A stretch of 64,000 nucleotides of DNA. It comes from a virus. Under the pieces are notes generated by a model. It saw nothing but the letters and a program-made list of their open reading frames with translations. It ran no database searches and was not told the origin of the DNA. The position numbers were made by a program, and so were the translations under genes. Where the stretch lies: the IMG/VR virus record IMGVR_UViG_3300023296_001674. One strand, given 5' to 3'. Shown piece after piece: positions 4,847-57,836 of this stretch. Every line of letters begins with the position of its first letter. Positions within the stretch are counted from its first letter, which is position 1.

Positions 4847-5209
4847 ATGGTAAAAAGACATAAAAGTGCTAAAGGTGATCAAATAGATTTTGATCTTTTG
4901 CAACTTAATAATAAAGAAGTGGTAGCCATTGGTAATGCCAGCATGAATGCAAACGGCGATACATTAGGAAGGGGTGGAGTAATTGTTCGAAAAGTAGACG
5001 ATATCCCCAAATCACAATTAGCAGACCCTAATGCAGCATACAATCAACAAAATCCAAAATCGACTAAATTAGTTAGTTTAAAGAGTGCAGTTGTAGTTGA
5101 TGACGTTGTTGTAGAAGCGACACCCGAAGTGGTGGTTGAAGAAACAGTCGTTGATGAAATCGAAAAAAAGCAAAAATCTAAAAGAAAAATAATTGACAGC
5201 GAAGAGTAA
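4847..5209 (+). CDS. Hypothetical protein
   Basis: AAGGAAAA RBS. V/E-rich C-terminal half with a KKQKSKRK tail. Confidence 0.5.
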   Translation: MVKRHKSAKGDQIDFDLLQLNNKEVVAIGNASMNANGDTLGRGGVIVRKVDDIPKSQLADPNAAYNQQNPKSTKLVSLKSAVVVDDVVVEATPEVVVEETVVDEIEKKQKSKRKIIDSEE

Positions 5210-5254: not shown

Positions 5255-5644
5255 ATGGCTACCGATTTTGATTATAGTACAACTGGTGTATTAACACCAA
5301 TTCGCGATCATGTTATAGTTACAGAAATGGACAACGAAGATGAGCGAATAGTTAACGGCATCATTCTGTTAAGTGAAACAGGATCAGACCGTGGCATCCA
5401 CCCAAGACAAGCATATGTAACCGCAGTAGGGCCAGATCAATCAGATGTGGCACCCGGCGATTGGATATTGGTCGAACACGGACGATGGACACGTGGTGTA
5501 AAATTAGACGATGGAAATATATATCGCAAAGTTGACCCATCTTGCATATTGGGAATAACTGGCGATAAGACTGACGATCTTCAGGTAATGGGCGACAAAG
5601 TTGTTAATAATTCTAGACATAATATGGGCGGGTTTGACGAATAA
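5255..5644 (+). CDS. groES: GroES-like co-chaperonin (T4 gp31 analogue)
   Basis: LTPIRDHVIVTEM..ERIVNGIILLSETG...AYVTAVGP....VAPGDWILVEHG follows the GroES pattern (P.GD.V.V...E....GGI.LP......G.V.AVG.G....V..GD.V). TGGAG RBS. Confidence 0.6.
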   Translation: MATDFDYSTTGVLTPIRDHVIVTEMDNEDERIVNGIILLSETGSDRGIHPRQAYVTAVGPDQSDVAPGDWILVEHGRWTRGVKLDDGNIYRKVDPSCILGITGDKTDDLQVMGDKVVNNSRHNMGGFDE

Positions 5645-22517: not shown

Positions 22518-22594
22518 GGGCGTGTATTCCAACCGGTAGAGAAACGAGACTTAAAATCTCGACAGTGTGGGTTCGAATCCCACCACGCCTACCA
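22518..22594 (+). tRNA. tRNA with anticodon UAA (Leu by anticodon) but class-I architecture; CCA encoded
   Basis: Hand-folded cloverleaf. Acceptor GGGCGTG/CACGCCT (G1-U72). D loop with GG. Anticodon stem CGAGA/TCTCG, loop CTTAAAA (TAA at 22552-22554). 5-nt variable region ACAGT. T arm GTGGG-TTCGAAT-CCCAC. Discriminator A, then CCA. Confidence 0.75.
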
Positions 22595-22598
22595 CATA

Positions 22599-22676
22599 GC
22601 TTCCGTCGTCTAACTGGATAAGGCACCCGACTTCTAATCGGGATATTTGTAGGTTCGAGTCCTACCGGGAGCACCA
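22599..22676 (+). tRNA. tRNA-Arg (anticodon UCU); CCA encoded
   Basis: Acceptor GCTTCCG/CGGGAGC. D stem GTCT/AGGC. Anticodon stem CCCGA/TCGGG, loop CTTCTAA (TCT at 22633-22635). T arm GTAGG-TTCGAGT-CCTAC. Discriminator A, then CCA. The variable region reads as 6 nt. Confidence 0.8.
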
Positions 22677-26639: not shown

Positions 26640-27083
26640 ATGATGGGTAAATCCATTTCACAAAACCGCAAAGTGCGCCATAACTATACCATTGATGATG
26701 AGTATGAAGCGGGTATTGTATTACAGGGCAACGAAGTAAAAAGTTTGGCTGTTGGACAGTGCAGCATTGCTGAATCGTATGTTACCATTGAAGGCAATGA
26801 AGCATTTTTGGTTAATGCGCATATTGATCCATATGATTTAGGTTCTAAGTTTGTGGCACAAGAGCCACGACGTCGGCGCAAATTATTGTTGCATAAACGC
26901 GAGATAAAGAATTTGCTTGTCAAATCGCAACAAGGGGGTTATACTATAGTTGCATTATCGATGTACTTCAATGACACGGGCAAGGTAAAACTTAAAATTG
27001 CCACTGCCAGAGGAAAGAAGAACTACGATAAGCGTGCCACGGAGAAGCAACGTGATTGGGATCGTGATAAGCGCAATTTATAG
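26640..27083 (+). CDS. smpB: SsrA-binding protein SmpB
   Basis: NRKVRHNYTIDDEYEAGIVLQGNEVKSL....I.ESYV...........H.DPY.......EPRRRRKLLLHKREI....K.QQGGYTIVALSMY....KVKLKIATARGKK.YDKR matches SmpB end to end. Confidence 0.9.
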   Translation: MMGKSISQNRKVRHNYTIDDEYEAGIVLQGNEVKSLAVGQCSIAESYVTIEGNEAFLVNAHIDPYDLGSKFVAQEPRRRRKLLLHKREIKNLLVKSQQGGYTIVALSMYFNDTGKVKLKIATARGKKNYDKRATEKQRDWDRDKRNL

Positions 27084-31739: not shown

Positions 31740-33662
31740 ATGGATAAAAATTTAATGGAAATCAAAGAAGCAGACATTCTTAAACATTATACATCGGTGT
31801 TTGGATTGGTTACTGACTTCAGTTATACTCCTAAAGCCAAAAAAGATTCAGGCACAGAAGAAGTAGTTTCCGATACCACATACGTTCGTCGCACTAAGCG
31901 TTCTCATGTGTCGGGTATTAAATCAACTGGTTCTAAATCTAGTGTTGCATTAATGGATACAATCGAAGGCGTTGATGGTGATGATCCGTTGATTACCGAA
32001 ATTCAAAGCCATATGATTCGTGTCATTCGCCGTGCTATGGCTATTGCCAGTGAAGTGGTAGACGTGTTTGGAAATTCAACTAATCTCAATCGTCTTAAAG
32101 AAGCAAATGGCAATGGACGTGTTTCCGAAATTGAACGAATTGAATTTCAAGAATTATTGAACACTGCGTCATTGATTGGATTGTTTGTTACCACAAGTTA
32201 TGTAACATTTATTCTTTCTGATTATATGACCGACAGTGACACCATGCAAATTTCCATCGATCCAACCGAAGAAATTGTAATTGACAATCCGGTTATCGCA
32301 CTGAAAGGCGCACTATGGGAACTTGATGACAATATTAAAAAATACGCAAAAGATGATATTACGCTAGTCCGCGTAGTGAAAGATTATTTTGCACAGTTGA
32401 TGGCTGAATTGCAAATTCGTAAATCAGGAATTCGTCACGCCGAAGTATTCATTGACAATAACTATCGGGTTGAAGAAGATAAATTTGACATCATTGGTTT
32501 TGATACAGCCAAAAAAGGTAAATCAACCAAACTTATTATGCAATTTGTTAGACCAGATCAAGTTGTTGGTAATCACATCGCGAAATATCAAGCATTAAAA
32601 TTAGCAAAAATGGTTGCACTATATGATTTCACACGCCAACGTAATCCGATATTGGATGTTGCTGGATTTCCACTTGGTGTTATTGGCGACGGTAATCCTG
32701 GAACTGGTAAGACAACTCTTTATCAAATGTTTTGTGGATTGGTTAATGATTATGCACAGGCGCAAAATCGCCCATTCGTTGTTGAAGTGTTTACGCCTGA
32801 TATGATTAGTTCATATCAAGGTAAAACCGCACAGAACGCTAAACAGGCGCTAACAAGCGGTATGGACCCACACGTATTCGGCAGTGTGCTGTTTGATGAT
32901 GTCGATCAAACGACAGCAAGCCGTGGTGATGATAAAGCATCCGCTGGACAACAAGAAGTAACGTCGGTTCTTATGGAAACACTTGCTGGTGCCAATACAA
33001 TCATCCGTGGGAACGCTTCTGCCTTTTTGTTTAGTAATTATCCAGAAAAAGTAGATGACGCCCTACGGCAGCGATGTGGGCTTCGTTGGTTGGTTGATGG
33101 GCCACAAACATTGGAAGATTATCAAGATATTCTTGCTTTATTGTTGGGTAAAAATCATACACTTGACTTGGGTGGTATTGAGTTGTATACTACACAAGAT
33201 ATCAAGAAAGCGATTGGACGTAGTTACGAGAAGCATAATCGCCCCACAGAAACTGCATTGATTGAAGTATTTGATCGCGTAGTTGATGAACAGGGCGAGT
33301 TGAATACCATCGAAAAAGTTGGTATTTACCTGAAAGCGATTCAAGGTGCTGATCCACGATTTACAGGTCGATCAATTAAGAATATTACCGATACTTGTAA
33401 AATGCGTTCGGCTGATTTTGAAGTTCCTGACGAATGGGTTGAAAATCCAGAAGTATTTGTTGAACTTGACTATGATCGCAAGGTTGATATGCTTAAAGAG
33501 TTAGTTACGCCTATTACAAGCGAAATGGTTTTACAAGAAACTAACCGTTATGCTGATTCAGAGTTTCGTTATTCTGATAAAAGCGATGAAGCCGAAATTG
33601 TAAATATGGTTCGTTATCACCATAATAAAACTGAGGCTGACAAACGTATCAGAAATGATTGA
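31740..33662 (+). CDS. Classic AAA-family ATPase with ~300-aa unknown N-terminal region
   Basis: Walker A GDGNPGTGKTT, Walker B VLFDDVDQ, FLFSNYPEKVDDALRQRCG (ATN.P..LD.A..RR-type second region of homology). Confidence 0.75.
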   Translation: MDKNLMEIKEADILKHYTSVFGLVTDFSYTPKAKKDSGTEEVVSDTTYVRRTKRSHVSGIKSTGSKSSVALMDTIEGVDGDDPLITEIQSHMIRVIRRAMAIASEVVDVFGNSTNLNRLKEANGNGRVSEIERIEFQELLNTASLIGLFVTTSYVTFILSDYMTDSDTMQISIDPTEEIVIDNPVIALKGALWELDDNIKKYAKDDITLVRVVKDYFAQLMAELQIRKSGIRHAEVFIDNNYRVEEDKFDIIGFDTAKKGKSTKLIMQFVRPDQVVGNHIAKYQALKLAKMVALYDFTRQRNPILDVAGFPLGVIGDGNPGTGKTTLYQMFCGLVNDYAQAQNRPFVVEVFTPDMISSYQGKTAQNAKQALTSGMDPHVFGSVLFDDVDQTTASRGDDKASAGQQEVTSVLMETLAGANTIIRGNASAFLFSNYPEKVDDALRQRCGLRWLVDGPQTLEDYQDILALLLGKNHTLDLGGIELYTTQDIKKAIGRSYEKHNRPTETALIEVFDRVVDEQGELNTIEKVGIYLKAIQGADPRFTGRSIKNITDTCKMRSADFEVPDEWVENPEVFVELDYDRKVDMLKELVTPITSEMVLQETNRYADSEFRYSDKSDEAEIVNMVRYHHNKTEADKRIRND

Positions 33663-33678
33663 TTGAAGGGATAAAATA

Positions 33679-34956
33679 ATGCAATTACTTGTCGATAATG
33701 AGTTAAAGTATGGAAATTTGTTGTTGGTTGATTCTGCACATTTAATCGCACGGTATAATCGTGCATTGAATGTTATATGTGGAAAAAAGACCGAGTTGGA
33801 AATTTTTCATATTGATGGCAGTGGATATAGCCCCGAAGTCGCGAAAGAACTCGACGATAAAGAATATATGAATCCACACGGTGTTAATAAGAAAATCATC
33901 ATTTTGTCATTAGAACAAGAAGGTCTTCCAGTATTGGATTCTTATTTCTCCACTACACGTGATTTGATTAGACGATTTATTCAAGATAATAAATCTGAAC
34001 TTTTTGCACTAACGAGTCGTGATGTGGTTTATGGCGAACTGGAGAATTCAACATTCAAAATTGAAAGTTTCACGGATTTGCTATGTATTAAACGCATCAT
34101 ATTTGAAATCAATACAGTTGGTGATTCCATCAAAAAAGGAAAACAGCTTACCAGTTTGATTAAATCATTTATGGTTAACGATAATATGTGGCATGATGAA
34201 AAAACGGTTGAAGAGATTATTGGGTTATCATCTGTGGTTGGTGATATTCGTCGACACCAAGTGACGCCGTCGCACACCGAATATAAACAAATCAATTTTT
34301 ATTCACGGCATTACGGCGGCGTATATGTATTCAATCACGACAATGGTGATTATACAGTTATTGCGCATGAAGAACAATACAGAAAAGAGGCTGAAACTTG
34401 TCATTTAAATGTTAAATTCATCCACATAGATGATAAAAAAGAAGTGATTGCATTTTTAAAGAAGAATAACATCGTTGAGATGTATAGTGATCGATATTTG
34501 CGCAAGAATATAGATTTGATGCGTGAAAAAATTAATTTCATCGCAATTGATCATATGTCACAGACGCACACAGACGCAGATTTGACGGATATTAGCGATG
34601 ATGAAATTAAAAAATATATTTATGATCACTATGATGAGTTACCTAAAGAGTTCCGCGTTCTTTCAAAAGCAGTAAAATTGATTGATAACGGATATTCTGT
34701 GGATTTGGAATCTGGTTCTGATGATATATTTTTCTACTTTGCTCGTTCTAGCGATCACGATCTCAAAGATTTGGTTAATCAATTGATTGCGTATTACACG
34801 CCGTTAGATTTTCTAAATGTGTTTATATCCAACAAACGTGCTTTTTATGAGTTGTATGACGAGTGGTCCAATAGTAAAAAATCATTTGTTGTTAATTACT
34901 TGGTTAGAGAATATCAACAAGATAAACACAGAATTAAAGGTAAATTCTTTGGGTAA
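33679..34956 (+). CDS. Hypothetical protein
   Basis: GAAGGGA RBS. 425 aa with no motif recognised. Confidence 0.55.
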   Translation: MQLLVDNELKYGNLLLVDSAHLIARYNRALNVICGKKTELEIFHIDGSGYSPEVAKELDDKEYMNPHGVNKKIIILSLEQEGLPVLDSYFSTTRDLIRRFIQDNKSELFALTSRDVVYGELENSTFKIESFTDLLCIKRIIFEINTVGDSIKKGKQLTSLIKSFMVNDNMWHDEKTVEEIIGLSSVVGDIRRHQVTPSHTEYKQINFYSRHYGGVYVFNHDNGDYTVIAHEEQYRKEAETCHLNVKFIHIDDKKEVIAFLKKNNIVEMYSDRYLRKNIDLMREKINFIAIDHMSQTHTDADLTDISDDEIKKYIYDHYDELPKEFRVLSKAVKLIDNGYSVDLESGSDDIFFYFARSSDHDLKDLVNQLIAYYTPLDFLNVFISNKRAFYELYDEWSNSKKSFVVNYLVREYQQDKHRIKGKFFG

Positions 34957-38535: not shown

Positions 38536-38564
38536 TTGACAAATATGCATTATTGACGTATATT
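38536..38564 (+). promoter_or_regulatory. sigma70-type promoter candidate abutting the dnaJ start
   Basis: TTGACA (38536-38541), 17 nt, TATATT (38559-38564). The ATG at 38571 lies 7 nt after the -10. Confidence 0.45.
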
Positions 38565-38570
38565 ATATCT

Positions 38571-39416
38571 ATGAAAAAATATTATGAAACATTAGAAGTC
38601 GAAAAAACAGCAACCGATGCCGAAATTAAAAAATCGTATCGCAAGTTGGCTATGAAATATCATCCTGATACAAATCCCGATGATGTAACAGCCGAAAATA
38701 ATTTCAAAGAAATAAATGAAGCATATGAGGTTTTATCCGACGAAACGAAAAAATCTAACTATGATACATTTGGCGATCCTGATGGTAGACCTACACCACA
38801 CACTAGCCAGCACGGTTTTGGTGGTGGTTTTCAATCAGCAACAGATTTTAATGATATTTTCAATGATATTATGAATGCACGAAGTGCACCAAAAAATGCT
38901 CATGCACAATCACAAATGACTATTACATTGGAAGAGGCGTATGTAGGATCATCAGTTGAGATAGAAATAACTAATCATAAAAATATATCATCAAAGCAAA
39001 ATATAAGAATTCCCGCTGGTATTAAACATGGTATGACGTTACGCCTTGCGGGTGCCGGTCATCATCACATTGAGGAGTTGCCACCCGGTGATTTATTGGT
39101 TAATATACAAATCACACCACATTCCATATTTACTGTGGTAGATTACAATTTAATCATGGAAGAAAAAATTAGCATGATCGAAGCCGTGTTTGGCAAGGAA
39201 ATAGAAGTTACTACATTGGCTGGAAAAACTTTGAAATTAGAAATTCCAAAAGGAACGCAACCAAATCATAAAATTCGATTAAAAGGTAAAGGAATGCCCG
39301 TATTAAACAGAAAAGATGTATTTGGTGATTTATATATAATTGTCAATGTTGAAATACCTACGAATATAACACAAAAACAACGAGATTTATTAAGTGAATT
39401 TAATGAAGTTTCTTGA
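38571..39416 (+). CDS. dnaJ: DnaJ/CbpA-like J-domain co-chaperone (no zinc-finger domain)
   Basis: J domain YYETLEVEKTATDAEIKKSYRKLAMKYHPD. G/F region GFGGGF. C-terminal beta domains. No CxxCxGxG repeats. Confidence 0.85.
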   Translation: MKKYYETLEVEKTATDAEIKKSYRKLAMKYHPDTNPDDVTAENNFKEINEAYEVLSDETKKSNYDTFGDPDGRPTPHTSQHGFGGGFQSATDFNDIFNDIMNARSAPKNAHAQSQMTITLEEAYVGSSVEIEITNHKNISSKQNIRIPAGIKHGMTLRLAGAGHHHIEELPPGDLLVNIQITPHSIFTVVDYNLIMEEKISMIEAVFGKEIEVTTLAGKTLKLEIPKGTQPNHKIRLKGKGMPVLNRKDVFGDLYIIVNVEIPTNITQKQRDLLSEFNEVS

Positions 39417-39441
39417 CAAAATATAAGTGTTAAGTTATAGT
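39413..39441 (+). promoter_or_regulatory. sigma70-type promoter candidate
   Basis: TTGACA (39413-39418, overlapping the dnaJ stop), 17 nt, TATAGT (39436-39441). 33 nt before the ATG at 39474. Confidence 0.5.
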
Positions 39442-39473
39442 TAGTTAATAGTTAATAGCACATAGGATGAAAT

Positions 39474-40004
39474 ATGATAGAAATTGTTTTAGAAGATGAT
39501 CCAGCATTAAAAATTGTTGTGCCACTATATGATTTTGACGAGCCGTTGAATATTGTAACTACACAAGATGAATTCGGTTTAACTGAATTCATTGATGCTA
39601 TGTTTGTGACCATGAAATTGAATAAAGGTCTCGGTTTGGCGGCTAATCAAATAGGACAAAACGTTCGCGTATTTGTTATGGATTTTTACGGCGAAGAATT
39701 TATTTGTATCAATCCAATAATTGAACAGTCATCAACAGAATTTACAATAGATCAAGAAGGCTGTTTAAGTTTTCCAGATTTATCATTAAATGTAAAACGA
39801 TCATCTGAAATATTTGTATCGTATTCAAATATCGATGGCGTTGAAATTCAAAGATGGTTATCTGGTATTACAGCTAGGTGTTTTCAACATGAACTAGATC
39901 ATTTGAATGGGATAACATTCGATTCACAAGTTGCAAAGCTAAGTTTAAAAATGGCTAAAGACAAAAGAAGAAAAAAAATAAAACAAAAACAAAGGAATAC
40001 CTAA
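39474..40004 (+). CDS. def: Peptide deformylase
   Basis: Motif 1 GLGLAANQIG, motif 2 EGCLSFP, motif 3 QHELDHLNG. Confidence 0.9.
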   Translation: MIEIVLEDDPALKIVVPLYDFDEPLNIVTTQDEFGLTEFIDAMFVTMKLNKGLGLAANQIGQNVRVFVMDFYGEEFICINPIIEQSSTEFTIDQEGCLSFPDLSLNVKRSSEIFVSYSNIDGVEIQRWLSGITARCFQHELDHLNGITFDSQVAKLSLKMAKDKRRKKIKQKQRNT

Positions 40005-42263
40005 ATGCCTAACGGATTTGACCAACGACACATTTCTATAATGCTTCAAAAAGCAGTAACATTAGCAGAAAAATACGATCACATATATATAACATTAGAA
40101 CATATCAGTTTAGTATTACTGGATGATAAGTCCGTTGATCACGGTATTAAAGAATGCGGCGGCGACATAAAACTTATTAAAGAAATGGTTTTGACTGCAT
40201 TGTTAGATGAAGCAGATATAACTGAAGCAGGAACTGAGCCACAACCAACAAGAGCAGTCATCAATGTTATTCAACGGGCAATCCAGCATTCTGTTGGATC
40301 AGGCCGCAATACAGTTGAACCATTTTATCTTATGGCAAGTTTGTTAATGGAAAAAGATTCCGTTGCTGTATGGGCATTAGCACAACAAAATGTTGATCGT
40401 GTAAGTTTTATTAGAACTATAAATGTTCCACCATCAGGACAAAATAAAGGTGGCCCGATGAATGAACTCGATCCTATAACGGGTCAACCTATGCCACAAC
40501 CTGAAAATGCATTAAGAGATTATTGTGTTAATTTGAATGAAAAGGTAATTGCTGGTGATATTGATCCATTGATAGGTCGCGAAAAAGAAATTGAACGGTC
40601 ACTACAAGTTTTATCTAGACGACGCAAAAACAATCCATTGCTTGTTGGTGAGCCAGGAGTTGGTAAAACCGCTATTGCAGAAGGATTGGCATGGAAAATT
40701 GTTAATGAAACCGTGCCAAATTATATCAAAGATTCTATTGTATATTCGTTGGATATTGGTGCACTTATGGCTGGTGCCAAATTTCGCGGTGATGTCGAAG
40801 AACGATTAAAAGCGGTTCTTGCCGGATTGGAAGAAGTTGGCAAAACCAACAAAACCATATTATTCATTGATGAAATTCATACCATTATTGGTGCGGGTGC
40901 TACATCAGGTGGAAGTATGGATGTTAGTAACCTATTGAAACCCGCACTTGCTGCTGGTTCATTACGTTGCATGGGTTCCACCACATATGCTGAATATAAT
41001 AAGTATTTCGAAAAAGATGCGGCACTTAAGCGTCGTTTCAAAAAAATTGATATTATTGAACCTACTGTTGATGAAACAAAAACTATTATCAAAGGTTTGG
41101 CAAAATATTTTGCTGAGTATCATGAAGTTAAATTCACAAAAGAAGCATTAATGAGTGCAGTTGATTTATCCGTTAAGCATATACACGATAACAAACTTCC
41201 AGATAAAGCGATTGATGTTATTGATGAGGCGGCGGCAGCACAAAGATTATTCGATGGCGAAGATCGCCTTGAAATCATTGATGTTAAACAAATTGAAGAA
41301 ACCGTTGCAAAGATTGCAAGGATTTCTATTGATGCAACATCAAAAACCGACAAAGATAGATTGCGTAACCTTGCAGAAAATCTAACAACACATGTGTTTG
41401 GTCAAGAAGAAGCGATTGATGTTCTAACCAAGGCAGTTAAATTAAGCAAATCTGGATTGCGTGAAGAAAATAAACCGATTGGTAATTTCTTATTCAGTGG
41501 ACCTACAGGCGTAGGTAAAACCGAAGTTGCAAAACGTCTTGCCGATGAACTAGACGTTCCGTTGGTGCGATTTGATATGTCTGAATATATGCAAAAGCAC
41601 GAAGTGTCTAAACTTATTGGATCGCCACCTGGTTATGTTGGTCATGATGATAGTGATGGATTTTTAATTGAAGAAATTGATAAGCATAATTATTGTGTTT
41701 TATTGTTAGATGAAATCGAAAAAGCACACCAAGATATATTCAACGTTCTGTTACAAGTTATGGATAATGCAACACTAACCGGTGGTCGCAATAAAACAGT
41801 GCGCTTTGACAATGTTATAATCATCATGACATCAAATGCTGGTGCATCAGACCTTGCAAAAGAAGTTATGGGATTTGGCAACGAAGAGCGAGTTGGCGAT
41901 GATCTTATAGCCATCGAAAAATTATTTACACCTGAATTTAGAAATCGTTTGGATAAAATCGTTGGATTTAAACCATTACAACAAGAAATAATGAATAAAG
42001 TTGTTGTTAAATTTATAAAACAATTGAAAGTTCAACTTAAAACACAGGATGTTAAACTTACGTTGATGAAGAAAGCCATTGAGTGGCTTGCCGTTAAAGG
42101 ATACAGTTCCAAATATGGAGCACGACCACTTTCGCGTGTAATAGACAATCATATCAAGCAGCCAATATCTGAAGAGTTATTATTTGGTCAACTTGAAAAT
42201 GGTGGTTCAGTTAAAATTGACATCGTTGAAGACGAACTTGAATTCACTTACAAACCAAAATAA
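40005..42263 (+). CDS. clpA: ClpA-type double-AAA+ unfoldase
   Basis: N-domain [67 protein letters not shown]2 [13 protein letters not shown] and [10 protein letters not shown]. About 750 aa without a long ClpB middle domain. MGFG loop in the ClpP-docking position. Confidence 0.9.
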
Positions 42264-42277
42264 CGGAATAATACGCG

Positions 42278-42463
42278 ATGACAGAAGTATTAAAATCATT
42301 ATATATACAAAGTGAAATATCGCGCATAACTAAACGCATTAAACAATATAATCAAATTTACCATTCGTTAGAAATAAAAGATTTGAATTTAAAACGATTG
42401 ATAACTAATAAACAACGAGAAATAGATATCTTAGATATGATATCAAGAGGAAACAATCAATGA
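42278..42463 (+). CDS. Hypothetical small protein
   Basis: Coupled to the next gene (ATGA overlap). Confidence 0.45.
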   Translation: MTEVLKSLYIQSEISRITKRIKQYNQIYHSLEIKDLNLKRLITNKQREIDILDMISRGNNQ

Positions 42464-42783
42464 CTGAAATAGAAACAAGAGCTACATTATTCGCCGTAAA
42501 ATCTATGTTCCCAGCAGAACACATTGAAACAGCCAATCGATTAGAATGGTGTCAAGAAAACAACATGGAATTTTTTAATGTTAGCATTCGTGGCACCAAA
42601 GTGGGTGATGTATTTTATGACGAACAAGAAATGCAAGAAATTGGCGTTCTTGAATTGCTTGATGCAGATGGTGTCAAAAAAGGCGAGATAAACCTTGAAA
42701 CATTACCACCAATCAACATCGGTATGGGATTTGTGTTTCATGATGAAACAGATGCCGCAGCATTTAAGCTGCAATGGAACTAA
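42460..42783 (+). CDS. AFKLRW-tail family small protein (...DAAAFKLQWN)
   Basis: LEWCQEN plus C-terminal DAAAFKLQW. Confidence 0.65.
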   Translation: MTEIETRATLFAVKSMFPAEHIETANRLEWCQENNMEFFNVSIRGTKVGDVFYDEQEMQEIGVLELLDADGVKKGEINLETLPPINIGMGFVFHDETDAAAFKLQWN

Positions 42784-42977
42784 TAAAAGTATCAGTTGGC
42801 AGTGATACAAATTTAGTTGATAATTCTATAATATGGTGCAAAGAAAATAATATAAACTTTGAAAAATATGAACCAATTCATAAATCTAATAAATTTGATC
42901 GTGATATAATCGTTGGTTTTATTTTTTATTTTTTAGCAGAAGAGGACGCGTTTGCATTTAAACTGCGATGGGTTTAA
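42774..42977 (+). CDS. AFKLRW-tail family small protein (...DAFAFKLRWV)
   Basis: IIWCKEN plus C-terminal AFKLRW. Its ATG is embedded in the CAATGG (Q-W) codons of the upstream tail (10-nt overlap). Confidence 0.65.
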   Translation: MELIKVSVGSDTNLVDNSIIWCKENNINFEKYEPIHKSNKFDRDIIVGFIFYFLAEEDAFAFKLRWV

Positions 42978-42980
42978 GTG

Positions 42981-43009
42981 TTGACATTACCATATTATTA
43001 ATATATTAT
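42981..43009 (+). promoter_or_regulatory. sigma70-type promoter candidate
   Basis: TTGACA (42981-42986), 17 nt, TATTAT (43004-43009). 35 nt before the ATG at 43044. Confidence 0.55.
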
Positions 43010-43043: not shown

Positions 43044-43823
43044 ATGAAATTTACATTTCTAGGTGCAGGTAGCGCATTTACGATGGAAAACTATCAATCT
43101 AATATGATAGTGACATCAGATTCTGGAAAAAATTTATTAATTGATTGCGGTGGCGATGTGCGCCATAGTATGAAAGCGGCAGGATTTGGCGTAGCCGATA
43201 TTGATGCGATATATGTCAGTCATCTACATTCAGATCACACTTCTGGAATCGAATGGTTGGCGTTTAATACATATTTTAATGATGCCTTAAAACAACCAAA
43301 AATGTTTATCAATGAAAAACTTTCACGTGAACTTTGGGAAAATACACTACAAGGTGGACTTGGAAGCATACAAGGAAAAATAACCACCCTTGATTCATAT
43401 TTTGAAGTTACTCGTGTTATAAAAAACAAATGTTTCATTTGGGAGGATATTGAATTTAGACTCGTTCAAGTGATTCATTATATGGATGGATTTGACATTG
43501 TTCCATCATATGGTTTGTTGTTTACAGTGAATGGATTGAGATATTTCTTAACTACTGATGCTCAACATGCTCCTTCGCAAATTCAAGATTTTTACAACAT
43601 GAGTGATGTTATCTTTCAAGATTGTGAAACTACCCCGTTTGCATCCGGTGTTCATGCGCACTATGAAGAACTTATAACACTTAATGAAGAAACAAAAGCC
43701 AAAATGATACTATATCATTATTCAGATGGCGACAAGAAAGATTGCACCAACGATGGATTTAGATGTTGGGCAACAAATCAAATGGAAATTGATTTAAATA
43801 CAGGAACGGTAATTAACGCATGA
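43044..43823 (+). CDS. Metallo-beta-lactamase-fold hydrolase (RNase Z/PhnP-like)
   Basis: LLIDCGG, then the HxHxDH motif SHLHSDHTSG, then a later TTDAQH. Confidence 0.75.
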   Translation: MKFTFLGAGSAFTMENYQSNMIVTSDSGKNLLIDCGGDVRHSMKAAGFGVADIDAIYVSHLHSDHTSGIEWLAFNTYFNDALKQPKMFINEKLSRELWENTLQGGLGSIQGKITTLDSYFEVTRVIKNKCFIWEDIEFRLVQVIHYMDGFDIVPSYGLLFTVNGLRYFLTTDAQHAPSQIQDFYNMSDVIFQDCETTPFASGVHAHYEELITLNEETKAKMILYHYSDGDKKDCTNDGFRCWATNQMEIDLNTGTVINA

Positions 43824-46066: not shown

Positions 46067-46291
46067 TTAGCCCCAGCGTAGCTTAAAAGCCATCGCTGAT
46101 TCAAGATTAAAAAATAAAACACCAGTGGAACACATGCATGCACCACTGGTGTATCCATCTAAAATAAAATCTTCTTTTACTTTTAGATTTTCAAATAACC
46201 AATTATCTATAAATTTTTCAGATATCACTGTATCATATTCAAAATATAAATCACTTGTTCTTCTTATTTTATAAAATTCTTCTACAGCCAT
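46067..46291 (-). CDS. AFKLRW-tail family small protein (...SAMAFKLRWG)
   Basis: NWLFEN plus tail. Its ATG is embedded in the AGATGG (R-W) codons of the upstream member. Confidence 0.65.
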   Translation of the reverse strand: MAVEEFYKIRRTSDLYFEYDTVISEKFIDNWLFENLKVKEDFILDGYTSGACMCSTGVLFFNLESAMAFKLRWG

Positions 46292-46488
46292 CTCATTTTG
46301 AATCCCATTGAATCTTCTTCATCTAACAACCAGACCACCGATGATGGTGGTTTTCGGACATCGGCAGAATCACATATGGCATAACTGTCTTCATCGATAT
46401 TGTCGATCAGCCATAGTTTAACTTCATCCATTTCGTTGTTGGAAATATAGAATTTTGTGTTGTTTATTTGACGTATTTTCATATCCAT
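46282..46488 (-). CDS. AFKLRW-tail family small protein (...[10 protein letters not shown])
   Basis: KLWLIDN plus tail. 10-nt overlaps on both sides. Confidence 0.65.
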
Positions 46489-46847
46489 CGTAATTTAAAT
46501 GCAACCACGTCGCTTTCATTATTGAATACAAATTTATACGTTAAATTATTTCGTTTGTCTTCAGTATAAGACCGGACGTAATATTCTTCAACGTTTTCTT
46601 TGAGCCACTCATTCATGTTATTTACCGTGACTTCATCATAGTTTTGCAACAACGCATAATATGATTGCTGTTCAACAATTTCAAATGATGGCTCCAATGA
46701 TTTAGACTGAACTGTGTGTATCGTTTCACTGCATATATCAACGCATTCATTGCAAATATATACATCTACACTAGCAATTAAATGTTTTACTTGCGATTGA
46801 TCTTTTTTACAAAATGAACATGTAGGTACTTTATTTTTTATAGCCAT
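46479..46847 (-). CDS. ClpX-type C4 zinc-finger fused to an AFKLRW-tail domain
   Basis: [34 protein letters not shown] versus E. coli ClpX [34 protein letters not shown] (recalled). C-terminal NEWLKEN...[10 protein letters not shown]. Confidence 0.75.
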
Positions 46848-47188
46848 TTTAATTTAAACGCTGTAACGTCTTCCTTGCATGTAAAGGTGAATTCAACGGT
46901 ATTAGTGCCGTTGATCGAATAATTGGTTTTGTTTTCAAATATGTATACTATATCATTATCCACGCACCAATCATCTATTAAATCAACGCCGTCTGCAATC
47001 ATGGCTGAATATACGTCATACGTTACAATAAATTTATACTTAAAAAATTTTTCTACTTGAGAATGAAAGCCAACTATATCATTTAATAACGTAATATTTG
47101 TTGGATTGTTTATTTTTTTAGTATCGACATCAAAATCTTGTAATATTTCAAATAATACTGCTTTGCGTAATGTATCTATATCATTCAT
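46838..47188 (-). CDS. AFKLRW-tail family small protein (...[10 protein letters not shown])
   Basis: DDWCVDN plus tail. Confidence 0.65.
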
Positions 47189-47207: not shown

Positions 47208-47555
47208 TTATATCCATCTTAATTTAAACGCCATCGCAGATTCTTTGTCATCATAAAACAACACTTCTATTTCTACCATTCCATTATCATCTTCGTCCCA
47301 ACCAGACCAATCCCAACGCCAATCACTAGTGCAATTTTCAAGCAACCAATCATGTTCTTCGTGATTGTTAAAATCCCATTCTTCACTAACTTTCGTTCCG
47401 TTTTTTTCACGACGTGGTGGATTTATTTTTGTCCCTGATATTTTAATATTAACTGTATTTTCGGATATGATCGATTTGTTATATGATGGCGTCGGTATAG
47501 ACGCTGTCGATACTTCTAATGTATATTTTCTACCACAATGAATATCGCCTTCCAT
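47208..47555 (-). CDS. AFKLRW-tail family small protein (...SAMAFKLRWI)
   Basis: Start moved to MEGDIHCG (47555), which has an AAAGAGA RBS and its own promoter upstream. DWLLENC plus tail. Confidence 0.6.
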   Translation of the reverse strand: MEGDIHCGRKYTLEVSTASIPTPSYNKSIISENTVNIKISGTKINPPRREKNGTKVSEEWDFNNHEEHDWLLENCTSDWRWDWSGWDEDDNGMVEIEVLFYDDKESAMAFKLRWI

Positions 47556-49371: not shown

Positions 49372-50673
49372 ATGACACATATATCGTTATATAATAGCAT
49401 GTCGAGAGAAAAAGAAAAATTCAAACCAATAGACGATTCTCGCGTAACTATGTATTATTGCGGTATCACCCCTTATGATAAACCACATCTTGGTAACGTA
49501 AGAGCGAGTATCACTGGTGATATGATATATAGACTGTTGCGGGTTTTTTATAAATCAGAAAATGTCATATATGCTAGAAATATTACTGACATAGATGATA
49601 AAATCGAAGCAAAAAGCCAAGAAACAGGAAGGTCTGCGATTGATATAACGAATGAAACTATTCAATGGTTTCATGAAACTATGAAAGTATTACATGTATT
49701 GCCACCGGATTTGGAGCCAAGGGTTTCTGATAATGAAGAATCTATGATGGATATGATTAACATATTACTTGATAAAAATATCGCATATAAATCAAATAAT
49801 GGTGACATTTATTTTGAATTAGATAAATTTCCAGAACACGGAAAATTATGCCGCCACAGTCGCGAAGATTTAAATATAAATGAAGAACATTCTTCAGAAA
49901 AAAAACATCCACAAGATTTTGTTTTATGGAAAGAAAATCATCAACGATTTGGTTGGCATATTGAATGTTCCGCGATGATTAAAAAGCATTTGGGTGACAC
50001 TATCGATATTCATGGTGGTGGTGGTGATTTACGTTTCCCACATCATGAGAATGAAATAGCTCAAAGTGAAACTGCTAATGGTGTCCCATTGGCTAATTAC
50101 TGGATGCATAACGGTATGATTACAGTGAACGGAAAGAAAATGGCTAAATCTACTGGAAGCTTTATTACAGTCGATGAAGCACTAGATCGTGTTCCCGGCG
50201 AAGCGATACGATTTTACATGCTTAAGACGCATTACCGTAAACCGTTTGATTGGTCGTGGGATGGTTTGATGGAAGCCAAGTCTGAACTTGATGGGTTATA
50301 TAGAAAGATGCAGAAACGCACTTATGTTAAAATGGGTGGCGTGTCAGTACAAGTATTATATGCGTTGGCTGATGATTTGAATACACCATTGGTGATATCA
50401 GAATTATACAAAGAAGCGGATAAGGAAATATCTTCTTTATTGGATTCGGCGCAGCTATTGGGTATACTGAATCATACACCAGAAGAATGGTTTCATGGCA
50501 CAACGAAAGATTCATTACTTGATGCATCGTCAATCGAGGCACTTATTGAAGTACGGAAACTATTGAAAGAAAATGGCGACTATGAATCTGCGGATATAAC
50601 AAGAGATATATTATTAGGACAAGGCATTATACTTGAAGATAAACCAGATGGGACAACTTGGCGAAAAATATGA
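49372..50673 (+). CDS. cysS: Cysteinyl-tRNA synthetase
   Basis: MYYCGITPYDKPHLGNVRA (HIGH-type), GWHIECSAM, HGGGGDLRFPHHENEIAQSE, KMAKSTGS (KMSKS). Confidence 0.9.
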   Translation: MTHISLYNSMSREKEKFKPIDDSRVTMYYCGITPYDKPHLGNVRASITGDMIYRLLRVFYKSENVIYARNITDIDDKIEAKSQETGRSAIDITNETIQWFHETMKVLHVLPPDLEPRVSDNEESMMDMINILLDKNIAYKSNNGDIYFELDKFPEHGKLCRHSREDLNINEEHSSEKKHPQDFVLWKENHQRFGWHIECSAMIKKHLGDTIDIHGGGGDLRFPHHENEIAQSETANGVPLANYWMHNGMITVNGKKMAKSTGSFITVDEALDRVPGEAIRFYMLKTHYRKPFDWSWDGLMEAKSELDGLYRKMQKRTYVKMGGVSVQVLYALADDLNTPLVISELYKEADKEISSLLDSAQLLGILNHTPEEWFHGTTKDSLLDASSIEALIEVRKLLKENGDYESADITRDILLGQGIILEDKPDGTTWRKI

Positions 50674-50921
50674 TTATAACACAACAAACTAATAGTCTAG
50701 ATGAGTGTAGATATGTATGTTTGGACGACAATCAAAATCTTACAGAATTAATGGATTTACTATATTGGCTGTCTGAAAATTGTTATAGAGTGCCAGGATT
50801 GGAATGGGTGTTTAGACGATTGGATCGATATAATCAAATAATTATCACATTTGGTTTTAATTCATTAAGTGATTGTTATAATGATGAATATCATATGGCA
50901 TTCAAGTTAAAATGGTTGTAG
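50670..50921 (+). CDS. AFKLRW-tail family small protein (...YHMAFKLKWL)
   Basis: ATGA overlap with the cysS stop. LLYWLSENC plus tail. Confidence 0.65.
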   Translation: MIITQQTNSLDECRYVCLDDNQNLTELMDLLYWLSENCYRVPGLEWVFRRLDRYNQIIITFGFNSLSDCYNDEYHMAFKLKWL

Positions 50922-52080: not shown

Positions 52081-52329
52081 ATGTGTAATCCATATATAAA
52101 AATATTTGAATATATCATGGATACACAATATTCAGAGATATATAAATGGTTGCGCAATCACGGCGAAGATGGTATAGATTGGTGCATAGAAGACTACAAT
52201 CAACAATATGTAATCAATGGTATGGATAATAACGTGAGTGTGGAATGTGATATGGTTGTAAAAATATATAATATTGATGTAGCGGCAGTTTTTGAAATGG
52301 AGCAAGTTGGTGGGCATAATGGAAAATAA
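52081..52329 (+). CDS. Divergent AFKLRW-family-like small protein (tail degraded to ...VAAVFEMEQVGGHNGK)
   Basis: IYKWLRNHGEDGIDWCIEDY resembles the family N-motif. The C-terminal motif is degenerate and extended. Confidence 0.45.
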   Translation: MCNPYIKIFEYIMDTQYSEIYKWLRNHGEDGIDWCIEDYNQQYVINGMDNNVSVECDMVVKIYNIDVAAVFEMEQVGGHNGK

Positions 52330-52540
52330 AAATAGACATATATCAGAAACAGGGCGTCATATTCTTGAAACACATCCATATGTAGTTGAGAATATTGATG
52401 ACAGCGATTGTTTTGTTGATATCATATATTGGACACGGGCGGTGTTTGGTGGTAAGGAAGAACGGGTAATAACATGTTGGAATAATTATTATTTTAGACA
52501 TGAAGTCGATTGTTTTAATTTTAAAATGAGGTGGTTGTAA
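52319..52540 (+). CDS. AFKLRW-tail family small protein (...DCFNFKMRWL)
   Basis: ATG 52319 after GGTGGG. TTG 52292 is the alternative. Confidence 0.6.
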   Translation: MENKNRHISETGRHILETHPYVVENIDDSDCFVDIIYWTRAVFGGKEERVITCWNNYYFRHEVDCFNFKMRWL

Positions 52541-53333: not shown

Positions 53334-53936
53334 ATGCAGTTTCCATTCATCAAATCAAATGTAACATTGGGGCTATTCATGAAAAATGAATATGTCAAAG
53401 TGAAATCACGATATACCAAATTATATGAACTTGCGAGACATTATTGGTTTGAATTGGTTTGTTTATCTATTTTAATGATGGTTATTATATCAAGTATGGA
53501 TAAAACATATACGCCAGTGGTTATAACACCAGTAGGTGTGGAAACAACATCAAACACTATCGCCGTTCAACCATCAAATACATACATTGATTTAAATTCA
53601 ATTGTGCGATATAAATCGACGATGATGGACAATGAAACTGTTGGTGATATAGAACGGCACGATCTTATTAATGCGCATGAAAACAAGTTTGTTGGTCAAC
53701 GTATAATTCACACTGGCAAACTTGATATAATAGATACAAAATATGATCATTATGCATTATATATATCAACCGCCAGTATATATGATGACGCGAAGTGTAA
53801 AATTGATATAGATGATAAAAAAATAATATATACACTACGCGAGGACGCAATTGTAACTATAAAAGGGTCAATTGAAGAAATCACGTTCAATTATAATATT
53901 GCAGATTGCGTTGTTGTGATGCCTGATGAAAAATAA
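53334..53936 (+). CDS. Single-pass membrane protein
   Basis: First ATG after the basic ORF. TM WFELVCLSILMMVIISSM. Confidence 0.5.
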   Translation: MQFPFIKSNVTLGLFMKNEYVKVKSRYTKLYELARHYWFELVCLSILMMVIISSMDKTYTPVVITPVGVETTSNTIAVQPSNTYIDLNSIVRYKSTMMDNETVGDIERHDLINAHENKFVGQRIIHTGKLDIIDTKYDHYALYISTASIYDDAKCKIDIDDKKIIYTLREDAIVTIKGSIEEITFNYNIADCVVVMPDEK

Positions 53937-54190
53937 TGAGTGATGAAAAATCTATATTTCATGACGTTGAAGAATCCAACACCGACGTGGGAATTGAGTA
54001 TACACTTTGGGGAAGTTATGATATAATCATCGAAGTTATGAATTGGCTACATGAACATTATCCATCGACGTGGGGAATTGAATGGACTGTCGATCATCAT
54101 AATAGACACGACGCGATAAACGTTGTATTCAATTTAAAAGAATGCAATACTGATGCAGCACTTATGGGGTTTAAATTGAGATGGTTGTAA
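53936..54190 (+). CDS. AFKLRW-tail family small protein (...ALMGFKLRWL)
   Basis: VMNWLHEHY plus tail. TAATG overlap upstream. Confidence 0.65.
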   Translation: MSDEKSIFHDVEESNTDVGIEYTLWGSYDIIIEVMNWLHEHYPSTWGIEWTVDHHNRHDAINVVFNLKECNTDAALMGFKLRWL

Positions 54191-56425: not shown

Positions 56426-57643
56426 ATGAATGACCATCGCGAGATTGCTACAGCTTTAGACTTATTTCATTTTGAGGAGCATTCACCAGGAATGGTATAT
56501 TGGCATCCTGAAGGGTTTAAATTATATCGAACCATAGAAGAATATATGCGAAGCATGCATGAAAAATATGGATATAAAGAAATTAGAACACCAATAATGG
56601 TCAATAAATCTTTATGGAAATTGTCTGGTCATTGGGATAAATTTCAAGACAATATTTTTATTGCTGGTGAAATAGGTGAAGTAATAAGCGATGAGTTAAT
56701 TTATACTGACGGGCAATATGTAATGTCTCCGATGAATTGTCCAAATCATATACAAGTGTACCAAAAGGGAACAAAGTCTTACAAGATGCTACCTGATCGT
56801 TTATTTGAATTTGGTGTGGTGCATCGCAATGAACCATCTGGATCATTGGCTGGCATTATGAGATTGCGAAGTTTTACACAAGATGACTCGCATATACACT
56901 GTACTGAAGATCAAATTTTGAGTGAAACAACCAATTTTATCAATATGCTTCAAGAAGTTTATTCTAAGTTTGGGTTCAATGACGTCGCTGTAAAACTTGC
57001 CACTCGATGTGAAGAACGCATTGGCGACGATGCCAGTTGGGATAAAGCCGAGAAAGCATTAGAAGATGCTTGTATACATCTTGGATTGGAATACACAATT
57101 AATCCCGGTGAATCAGCATTCTATGGCCCAAAACTTGAGTTCACGCTACAAGATAGCCTTGGTCGTGATTGGCAATGTGGAACCATCCAGATTGATTTTA
57201 ACATGTGCGAACGATTGGGTGCTACATACATTGACGAAAATGGTGATAAGAAACATCCGGTATTGATTCACCATGCTGTATTGGGAAGTTTGGAACGCTG
57301 GGTTGGTGTATTGCTTGAGAACAGCAATGGTGAACTACCGTTGTGGCTTGCCCCTACACAAGTGGTTGTTGCCAGTATTACCAGTGATGTTAATGACTAT
57401 GCTGAAGAGAAAATGGTTACACTTAGTGGTATCGGATATCGAGTTGAGTTGGATGACCGAAATGAAAAAATCGGTAAGAAAATCAAAGACGCACAGAAAC
57501 GACGTATTCCATATATGCTTATTGTGGGTAAAAAGGAAAAAGAGAATCAAATGGTCAACGTTCGCAAATTGAACGGCGACCAAGATGATATGGAGTTGAT
57601 AGATTTTATAGGATCATTCGTCAAATCTACAAATGAAAGGTGA
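56426..57643 (+). CDS. thrS: Threonyl-tRNA synthetase, catalytic + anticodon-binding domains only (no TGS/editing region)
   Basis: Starts MNDHREIATALDLFHF.E.SPGMVYWHPEG, the segment that opens the ThrRS catalytic core. HRNEPSG, FTQDDSHIHC, class II motifs. C-terminal anticodon-binding domain. TGGAG RBS 8 nt before ATG 56426. Confidence 0.85.
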   Translation: MNDHREIATALDLFHFEEHSPGMVYWHPEGFKLYRTIEEYMRSMHEKYGYKEIRTPIMVNKSLWKLSGHWDKFQDNIFIAGEIGEVISDELIYTDGQYVMSPMNCPNHIQVYQKGTKSYKMLPDRLFEFGVVHRNEPSGSLAGIMRLRSFTQDDSHIHCTEDQILSETTNFINMLQEVYSKFGFNDVAVKLATRCEERIGDDASWDKAEKALEDACIHLGLEYTINPGESAFYGPKLEFTLQDSLGRDWQCGTIQIDFNMCERLGATYIDENGDKKHPVLIHHAVLGSLERWVGVLLENSNGELPLWLAPTQVVVASITSDVNDYAEEKMVTLSGIGYRVELDDRNEKIGKKIKDAQKRRIPYMLIVGKKEKENQMVNVRKLNGDQDDMELIDFIGSFVKSTNER

Positions 57644-57836
57644 ACGTGTTTTTGATAAAATGAAACTCCCATATCCATGTTACGTTAATTATGGCGTTGA
57701 CCCAGATATGGTAATCGAATGGTGTGATGAGAATATCGAGTGTAAATGGGGGTATTTTCATCAAAATAACGGAACTCTTTATATATACATTACAGATGAT
57801 GTATATGGAATTGCATATAAGTTAAAATGGTCTTGA
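57633..57836 (+). CDS. AFKLRW-tail family small protein (...YGIAYKLKWS)
   Basis: VIEWCDEN plus tail. Overlaps the thrS end by 11 nt (alternative ATG at 57660). Confidence 0.6.
   Translation: MKGERVFDKMKLPYPCYVNYGVDPDMVIEWCDENIECKWGYFHQNNGTLYIYITDDVYGIAYKLKWS

Follow-up and report, generated by a model that had tools for sequence, protein, structure and literature searches.

Clp and Hsp40 components of jumbo phages have a place in the literature: ClpA, DnaJ, ClpS, and ClpP are already documented in such phages (PMC6102473, PMC7824862), and the core genes of the "moraphages" include clpA (PMC12619734). The closest described system is that of Sinorhizobium phage Phosso, a 469-kilobase (kb) jumbo phage in which gp193–195 (PV764938.1) are, in this order, a DnaJ-like protein, a peptide deformylase, and a Clp ATPase, the last two genes being 1 nucleotide (nt) apart, with ClpS and ClpP encoded elsewhere in the genome. 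Here, we examine the same trio, dnaJ-def-clpA, at positions 38536–42263 of a 64,000-nt stretch of IMG/VR virus record IMGVR_UViG_3300023296_001674 (hereafter, the window), which derives from an uncultured giant bacteriophage with a genome of ~570 kb. The block represents, in this genome, a J-protein-(deformylase)-ClpA cassette that is specific to viruses and conserved among jumbo phages related to Atu_ph07 and Phosso.

Partial versions of this arrangement can be found in other cultured phages. In Agrobacterium phage Atu_ph07, the class-B J-protein gp293 lies directly 5' of the co-oriented ClpA gp292; no def separates the two genes, and clpA is preceded by a promoter of the TTGACA type. The Atu_ph07 ClpA carries the tripeptide IGF, and the genome is also listed with ClpX, ClpB, ClpP, and ClpS (PMC6102473). 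Deformylase gp154 of phage AP-J-162 adjoins DnaJ gp155 (PMC11242549). All of the PA5oct-like Pseudomonas jumbo phages (Wroclawvirus) place a J-domain protein 9 nt 5' of clpA, with no def in the cassette; ClpS and ClpP are encoded within ~21 kb and a GroES-like gene ~5 kb upstream, and the J-protein (229 amino acids, aa) has a divergent C-terminal part. In the jumbo-phage literature that we searched, we found no account of the cassette being conserved as a unit peculiar to viruses, of a def-clpA coupling, or of a replaced clpS-clpA linkage.

The window proteins are 32% (J-protein), 41% (Def), and 45% (ClpA) identical to those of Phosso, whose dnaJ, unlike that of the window, has neither a TTGACA promoter nor the leaderless geometry described below. 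The topoisomerase II subunits encoded in the window are closest to those of Phosso (50%) and Atu_ph07 (48%), followed by Rak2-like phages (~40%), and the window belongs to an uncultured jumbo phage that is related to the Atu_ph07/Phosso group at a deep level. A megablast search with the block returned no match among 50,697 phage records, that is, no near-identical GenBank phage, which makes this a new phage. Six public contigs encode the identical ClpA protein; four of these are 0.2–1 Mb in size, and one measures 570,549 bp (ena:ERZ27315719:k141_202852), the window occupying its region of roughly 105–169 kb in reverse orientation. The window represents ~11% of the ~570-kb genome and, with flanks of 10 kb per side that were reached via exact-protein look-ups, ~84 kb was covered. 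The block and the remainder of the window have the same guanine-cytosine (GC) content; this match and the topoisomerase II kinship are consistent with a long residence of the block in this phage lineage.

Linkage of the genes in phages and bacteria

The cassette is virus-specific, widespread, and under selection for linkage. Five of the six metagenomic relative contexts that we inspected (54–70% ClpA identity) read dnaJ-def-clpA, one of them with an additional open reading frame (ORF) between dnaJ and def, and the sixth ends at def, at the contig edge. The def-clpA gap is 0–2 nt in seven related loci. Since the same order and junction recur in relatives down to 54% ClpA identity, the block is not a product of chance.

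A ClpA-profile scan of IMG/VR matched more than 583 contigs, and neighboring genes were counted in the best 80 loci; as a bacterial control, the same profile was applied to one genome per bacterial species, and the best 80 loci were again used. A J-protein gene stands directly 5' of clpA, on the same strand, in 69 of the 80 viral loci and in none of the 80 bacterial ones (Fisher p = 1e-33), and def is directly 5' of clpA in 46/80 viral versus 1/80 bacterial loci (Fisher p = 9e-17). The bacterial neighbor is clpS, found directly 5' of clpA in 59/80 bacterial versus 3/80 viral loci (Fisher p = 1e-21); the ClpS of these three viral loci is essentially identical to that of E. coli, and they are probably contamination. 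In the lone bacterial def-clpA-like locus, from a Phascolarctobacterium metagenome-assembled genome (L277, 2446–2814), a def-like gene lies ≤1.2 kb 5' of a ClpA-like gene, a neighbor that may be due to chance or to a ClpC-type context. Bacteria keep clpS beside clpA, whereas the phage order is J-(def)-clpA and clpS is not linked to it; this contrast indicates that selection has kept the trio together as a functional unit in a broad set of giant phages from the environment.

The junction of def and clpA is tight well beyond the nearest relatives. An in-frame clpA ATG lies −17 to +5 nt from the def stop in 42 of the 45 def-containing viral loci, a count in which the nearest ATG was taken per locus and which is therefore biased toward small gaps. 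In 23–25 of the 80 viral loci, as in Atu_ph07 and the PA5oct-like phages, the cassette has no def.

The sequence-only reading of this DNA had held a complete ClpA to be uncommon in a phage, a view that did not survive: ClpA is present in 114 public phage records at ≥80% coverage, forms PHROG family phrog_4871, matches the IMG/VR contigs counted above, and has been reported in print (PMC6102473, PMC7824862, PMC12619734). With the trio annotated in cultured Phosso and common to hundreds of large phages, the block is no rarity. Huge phages with DnaJ (LR7565xx) were considered as further cassette members and rejected, there being no ClpA or Def within 6 kb. In a rough neighbor-joining tree, 26 metagenomic phage ClpAs are monophyletic (100/100 bootstraps), and the bacterial, metagenomic-phage, and cultured-phage ClpAs form three well-separated groups; these meet at a single node, so the tree assigns neither a donor nor a number of acquisitions.

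Gene products and expression signals

The three genes are adjacent and co-oriented, as the sequence-only reading had stated, and all three ORFs are uninterrupted on the plus strand (38553/38571–39416, 39474–40004, and 40005–42263), which removes the frameshifts that would have spoken against it. The gaps are 57 nt between dnaJ and def and 0 nt between def and clpA, the TAA of def directly preceding the ATG of clpA, again as first read.

The J-protein gene (38571–39416, plus strand) likely starts at ATG 38571, the choice of the gene caller on the source contig, and not at TTG 38553. Its 281-aa product is a class-B J-protein of the CbpA/Thermus DnaJ2-like type, with matches to Pfam DnaJ (PF00226, 1.7e-27) and DnaJ_C (PF01556, 7e-44). 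The HPD motif of the J-domain (H31-P32-D33) is invariant in the alignment, the glycine/phenylalanine (G/F) stretch is short (GFGGGF...DIFNDI, with a DIF motif), and two client-binding beta-sandwich domains make up the C-terminal part. The protein has zero cysteines and shows a gap opposite the zinc-finger columns (CxxCxGxG) of E. coli DnaJ, as does E. coli CbpA. Pfam, the alignment, and the Cys-free sequence thus bear out the first description of a DnaJ/CbpA-like protein with HPD and G/F but no zinc finger. E. coli CbpA and Thermus thermophilus DnaJ2 have the same architecture (J-domain, G/F, C-terminal domains I/II, no zinc finger) and align over the full length, although at 33% identity. The best PDB matches are 4J80/6PSI and 3LZ8 (Thermus DnaJ2, a CbpA-like protein). 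Matches to the PRK14299 and CbpA models run full-length in a single stretch and stay under the equivalog cut-offs of these models (NF007618, 160 bits vs 403). A tblastn search of the window with E. coli CbpM found no homologue of this CbpA partner.

The def gene (39474–40004, plus strand) encodes a 176-aa peptide deformylase (Pfam 1.7e-38, TIGR00079, phrog_2890) that passes the TIGR00079 equivalog cut-off (111.7 bits vs 103.95). All three motifs that the sequence-only reading had noted (GxGxAAxQ, EGCLS, HExxH) are present and invariant across relatives as G52-L-G-L-A-A-N-Q59, E95-G-C-L-S99, and H139-E-L-D-H143; the invariant catalytic and metal residues are G52/G54/L55/A56/Q59, E95-G-C-L-S99, and H139/E140/H143. 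Stand-alone phage deformylases belong to the same family and carry the same motifs (cyanophage S-SSM7 and Vibrio and Caulobacter/Brevundimonas phages; 156 phage records). What sets the window gene apart is its presumed translational coupling to clpA and the long, strongly basic C-terminal tail of its product; the alignment to the S-SSM7 deformylase covers the core only (query residues 32–149).

The clpA gene (40005–42263, plus strand) encodes a 752-aa ClpA-type Hsp100 unfoldase with an N-domain (Clp_N, PF02861, residues 17–62), two AAA+ domains (D1 and D2), and no M-domain. It matches TIGR02639 in one collinear stretch (residues 8–739, 937 bits) and NF008263 with 834 bits (cut-off 1350), whereas its matches to the ClpB, ClpV, ClpG, ClpC, and Hsp104 models are broken into two stretches. 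Among PDB entries, E. coli ClpA matches best (737 bits, one stretch, 10–749), versus 541 bits in two stretches for ClpB, and it is this collinearity with the ClpA model and structure that leaves no room for a coiled-coil M-domain, whose absence sets ClpA apart from ClpB/ClpC. Reassignment to another Clp/Hsp100 class is therefore not favored, and the phage protein is best described as ClpA-type on its sequence, from a divergent phage lineage and not a strict equivalog.

Against the E. coli ClpS-ClpA-ClpP system (1KSF, 6W1Z), the phage ClpA is collinear over the full length at 47–48% identity, with the ATPase motifs, pore loops, and tripeptide position in common. The Walker A/B motifs, both pore loops, Arg fingers, and sensor 2 are intact (motif strings [35 protein letters not shown] and GYVG loops, RRF, RNR, GARP). 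Differences include the D1 pore loop (KFR vs KYR in E. coli) and the ClpP-docking tripeptide, where M622-G623-F624 aligns with I-G-L; this confirms the MGFG loop that had been noted at the docking position of a full-length double AAA+ protein. Nearly all 26 members of the metagenomic phage ClpA clade have [IVM]GF at this place.

Expression signals were sought by scanning the window for perfect copies of TTGACA-N16-18-TATNNT, with 100 shuffles as control. The motif occurs 14 times versus 1.9 expected, and 0/100 shuffles reach 14; each of the copies that were mapped to genes (5193, 38536, 39413, 42981, 47592, 47628, 48423) lies just 5' of an ORF start. A sigma-70-like promoter for the J-protein gene is predicted at 38536–38564 (plus strand, TTGACA-17-TATATT, a consensus match), and the position at which the sequence-only reading began the block, 38536, is the −35 hexamer of this site. 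The dnaJ ATG at 38571 follows the −10 hexamer by 6 nt and is not preceded by a Shine–Dalgarno sequence, which implies that the predicted dnaJ mRNA is leaderless. The same geometry, with the ATG 6–7 nt after the −10 hexamer and no Shine–Dalgarno sequence, is found in the window (38536–38573) and in two relatives (L015, 8477–8515; L017, 8514–8553) whose J-proteins are only 46–54% identical. Four other promoter-linked genes that were checked in the window (5255, 43044, 47688, 48484) have leaders of ~30–35 nt.

A second sigma-70-like promoter (39413–39441, plus strand, TTGACA-17-TATAGT) overlaps the dnaJ stop and would serve def-clpA, with equivalent sites 5' of def in four relatives (L015, L017, L025, L026). 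Behind it, def has a ~30-nt leader with a GGA-type Shine–Dalgarno sequence, and the Shine–Dalgarno sequence of clpA (AAGGAA) sits within the def 3' end. Three small ORFs follow clpA (61, 107, and 67 aa; 42278–42977, plus strand), the last two belonging to the AFKLRW family discussed below; no promoter-like or terminator-like site was found between clpA and these ORFs, which are probably co-transcribed with it. From this layout, we infer two units that would depend on host RNA polymerase, dnaJ alone and def-clpA with the small ORFs, and the sigma-70-like promoters on both suggest early expression.

Partner proteins and possible roles

The sequence-only reading saw no ClpP or Hsp70 in the window and concluded that the phage proteins must plug into host DnaK, ClpP, and GroEL. 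The first part is correct, as tblastn with the E. coli proteins found no ClpP, ClpS, DnaK, or GroEL in the window; a search for clpP, clpS, and dnaK that took in the 10-kb flanks recovered clpS, and neither of the other two. The clpS gene is located at 2096–2413 of L029, ~6 kb 5' of window position 1 (window position = L029 position − 8210; Pfam 4.8e-30). Its product is 47% identical to E. coli ClpS and retains N-D-D-x-T-P-M-E-F-V, the His66 equivalent, and the E79/E82/K84 equivalents. ClpS is also present in Phosso and in the PA5oct-like phages by our own search. The neighbors of clpS are an SPFH/Band_7 protein gene (L029, 967–1983) and the gene of an 1827-aa subtilase (Peptidase_S8) with seven He_PIG Ig-like repeats, which runs from 4475 to 9958 of L029 and into the window at 42–1748.

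With respect to DnaK, no Hsp70 gene was detected in the window ± 10 kb, nor in Atu_ph07, Phosso, or the PA5oct-like phages. Host DnaK is thus the most likely partner of the J-protein, and a dependence on it is plausible because no phage Hsp70 was found. The dependence on host ClpP is unproven, in that the relatives encode ClpP: the cultured J-ClpA phages all have their own, 13–240 kb from clpA, with 64% (Atu_ph07), 64% (Phosso), or 46% (PA5oct-like phages) identity to E. coli ClpP. The extensive rewiring of host protein quality control that the sequence-only reading drew from all this would be a possible consequence.

In our view, the cassette is probably an early-expressed phage proteostasis module in which a J-protein acting with host DnaK, Def, and a ClpS-steered ClpA acting with a ClpP are combined. 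Early in infection, dnaJ (leaderless) and def-clpA (with translational coupling) would be transcribed by host sigma-70 RNA polymerase. The class-B J-protein would bind clients and drive the ATPase of host DnaK through its HPD motif, and Def would add capacity for co-translational N-formyl removal during the phage translation burst; the phage also encodes aminoacyl-tRNA synthetases, tRNAs, and SmpB. Hexameric ClpA would dock via its MGF loops onto ClpP, be it that of the host or one encoded by the phage as in the cultured relatives, and phage ClpS would steer this unfoldase to N-degron substrates. The net outcome would be folding and selective degradation under phage control during infection.

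There are several points that weigh against this account and that should be kept in mind. The roles of the cassette proteins are read from sequence, the promoters and the leaderless start are predicted solely from agreement with a consensus, and the ClpA score lies slightly under the equivalog cut-off of TIGR02639 (937 vs 993.15). The conserved ClpS residues presumably serve in degron and ClpA binding, roles known from the E. coli literature. The sequence gives no reason why def, of all genes, joined clpA. Finally, no ClpP was found by tblastn in the ~84 kb of window and flanks or in the loci of the relatives. IMG/VR scans with a cassette-linked ClpP and with a ClpP profile had only one contig in common with the ClpA contigs (the best 80 of more than 584 hits), that of L079 itself, and clpP is within 10 kb of clpA in 1/80 viral loci. 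With clpP 13–240 kb away in the cultured relatives and only ~84 of 570 kb covered, its absence here says little.

That same absence bears on the first alternative, which we regard as unlikely: ClpA might be mainly a peptidase-free unfoldase or remodeling chaperone that acts with the J-protein and host DnaK, for instance in virion assembly, disaggregation, or replication-complex remodeling. E. coli ClpA activates RepA, which offers a model for a remodeling role. The lack of a nearby clpP, here and in 79 of the 80 viral loci, would fit such a function, as would the joining of J-protein and ClpA in three phage lineages and in 69/80 viral loci. Translocase or assembly roles have indeed been proposed by Iyer et al. 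(PMC7824862). However, the phi-G-F ClpP-docking tripeptide has been kept throughout the phage clade, there is no M-domain for coupling to DnaK, and the phage retains ClpS while its cultured relatives retain ClpP. As is well established, ClpB-type disaggregases do without the docking tripeptide.

The unexplained choice of def is the starting point of a second, rather improbable alternative, in which J-protein, Def, and ClpA are a single protein-triage machine based on the N-terminus, deformylation being mechanistically coupled to ClpS/ClpA(P) N-degron proteolysis. In an equally doubtful variant, Def would unmask or edit N-terminal degrons, or a retained formyl-Met would be read as a quality signal, with J/DnaK handing over the clients. 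Triage would account for a def-clpA coupling in place of the bacterial clpS-clpA linkage. It draws on the def/clpA junction, the most strictly conserved feature of the cassette (0–2 nt in relatives; −17 to +5 nt in 42/45 viral loci), on the essentially virus-specific position of def 5' of clpA (46/80 vs 1/80), and on a phage ClpS whose predicted N-degron pocket is intact. Tight coupling may, however, mean co-expression only, and stand-alone deformylases are common phage auxiliary genes (156 records). Moreover, def is missing from the cassette in 23–25/80 viral loci, Atu_ph07, and the PA5oct-like phages, and the N-degron accessory genes for Met-aminopeptidase (Map), Aat transferase, and formyltransferase (Fmt) were not found in the window or flanks.

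The early-type promoters, which our preferred proteostasis account uses as well, would also suit a counter-defense function, to which we give a low probability. Here, the J-protein would act as a decoy or competitor in DnaJ-dependent immune sensing, and ClpS/ClpA would degrade host defense or stress-response proteins. DnaJ-dependent bNACHT25 sensing has been raised in the moraphage paper (PMC12619734). An Apyc1-family, anti-Pycsar-like gene for a metallo-beta-lactamase-fold protein (43044–43823; Pfam 93 bits vs a cut-off of 50) lies 0.8 kb 3' of clpA behind its own TTGACA promoter at 42981. Against this, the cassette was screened as a defense system with PADLOC and rejected: J-protein, Def, and ClpS gave no match, and ClpA gave a partial single-AAA match (D2) of ≤126 bits, compared with 937 bits as ClpA.

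Lastly, although its ClpA is closer to alphaproteobacterial (53% identity) and E. coli (47%) ClpA than to cultured-phage ClpAs, we consider it very improbable that bacteria contributed this DNA, be it as a host fragment, through misassembly, or by recent transfer, or that the block is a decaying remnant, since the exact ClpA protein recurs on six contigs (four of 0.2–1 Mb), the surroundings resemble those of a phage and keep their gene order in relatives, the 26 ClpAs from metagenomic phages group together as one clade (100/100), block and window GC agree, bacterial loci show clpS-clpA and never J-def-clpA, and every motif of the three proteins is intact; synteny and motif data effectively refute both contamination and decay.

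Neighboring genes and wider significance

Three further genes named by the sequence-only reading were recovered with profiles. The first, at 5255–5644 (plus strand, 129 aa), encodes a GroES/T4 gp31-like co-chaperonin and has its own TTGACA promoter at 5193; its Pfam Cpn10 match is borderline (21.5 vs 21.1 bits), and it also matches phrog_931 (2.4e-10) and phrog_3188 (1.8e-6). GroES-like homologues (33–49% identity) lie 5–10 kb 5' of clpA in 21 of the 80 IMG/VR loci (L035–L099), and such a gene is near clpA in the PA5oct-like phages as well (L002, 756–1073); the window copy is separated from clpA by 35 kb. The second encodes SmpB (26640–27083, plus strand, 147 aa; Pfam 7e-54), which is also found in relative L017. 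No transfer-messenger RNA (tmRNA) gene was detected in the window (ARAGORN and Rfam gave only two tRNAs), and the phage SmpB may use host tmRNA or a tmRNA encoded elsewhere in the genome. The third (46479–46847, minus strand, 122 aa) fuses a ClpX-type C4 zinc finger (zf-C4_ClpX, 1.9e-15) to an AFKLRW domain and has no AAA+ module; its orthologue in L015/L016 is on the clpA strand, directly 3' of the cassette.

The AFKLRW family consists of 60–125-aa proteins with a near-invariant C-terminus, "...F-x-F..EEDAxAFKL(R/K)W-x". The window has 11 copies and each of five relatives (L015–L018, L026) has 4–7, many of them directly 3' of clpA. In the window, copies lie on the plus strand at 42460–42783, 42774–42977, 50670–50921, 52319–52540, 53936–54190, and 57633–57836, and on the minus strand at 46067–46291, 46282–46488, 46479–46847 (the copy that bears the ClpX zinc finger), 46838–47188, and 47208–47555. 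The family was not seen in the Atu_ph07 locus or the examined 10.7-kb Phosso locus and has no Pfam or PHROG match. An AlphaFold2 model of the C-terminal domain predicts, with confidence, a beta-alpha-beta-beta-alpha fold; a Foldseek search of PDB and BFVD with this model returned nothing at E ≤ 0.001, only generic ferredoxin/ACT-like similarity.

The window further encodes a T4 gp44-like clamp loader, PhoH, tRNAs, an aminoacyl-tRNA synthetase, and many small ORFs. The translation genes are tRNA-Leu and tRNA-Arg (22518–22676) and a class-I aminoacyl-tRNA synthetase (tRNA-synt_1e, 49372–50673); a class-II synthetase and a Thg1-like enzyme are encoded just 3' of the window (L028, 4119–5336 and 10923–11837), and relatives encode IF1 and a PTH2 peptidyl-tRNA hydrolase (L017, 7152–7370; L018, 7926–8294). 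A 640-aa AAA ATPase (31740–33662) is followed by a DUF6638 protein (33679–34956; 5.9e-100), a pair that the relatives L015 and L016 also have 5' of the cassette. A Peptidase_M3 (oligopeptidase A/thimet-like) gene lies a few kb 5' of the cassette in L015/L016 (2117–4123) and L017 (3033–5012) and is not found at the equivalent place in the window. Enzymes of this type break down the short peptides left by ATP-dependent proteases.

Each gene of the cassette is of a known type, and the window block by itself is no discovery. The comparative pattern goes further, in that phages put a J-protein gene, usually together with an end-to-end def, before clpA where bacteria put clpS. Phosso, AP-J-162, Atu_ph07, and PA5oct are available as cultured models for dissecting a Clp/Hsp40 system under phage control together with its substrates, and one idea can be corrected: such phages need not depend on host ClpP.

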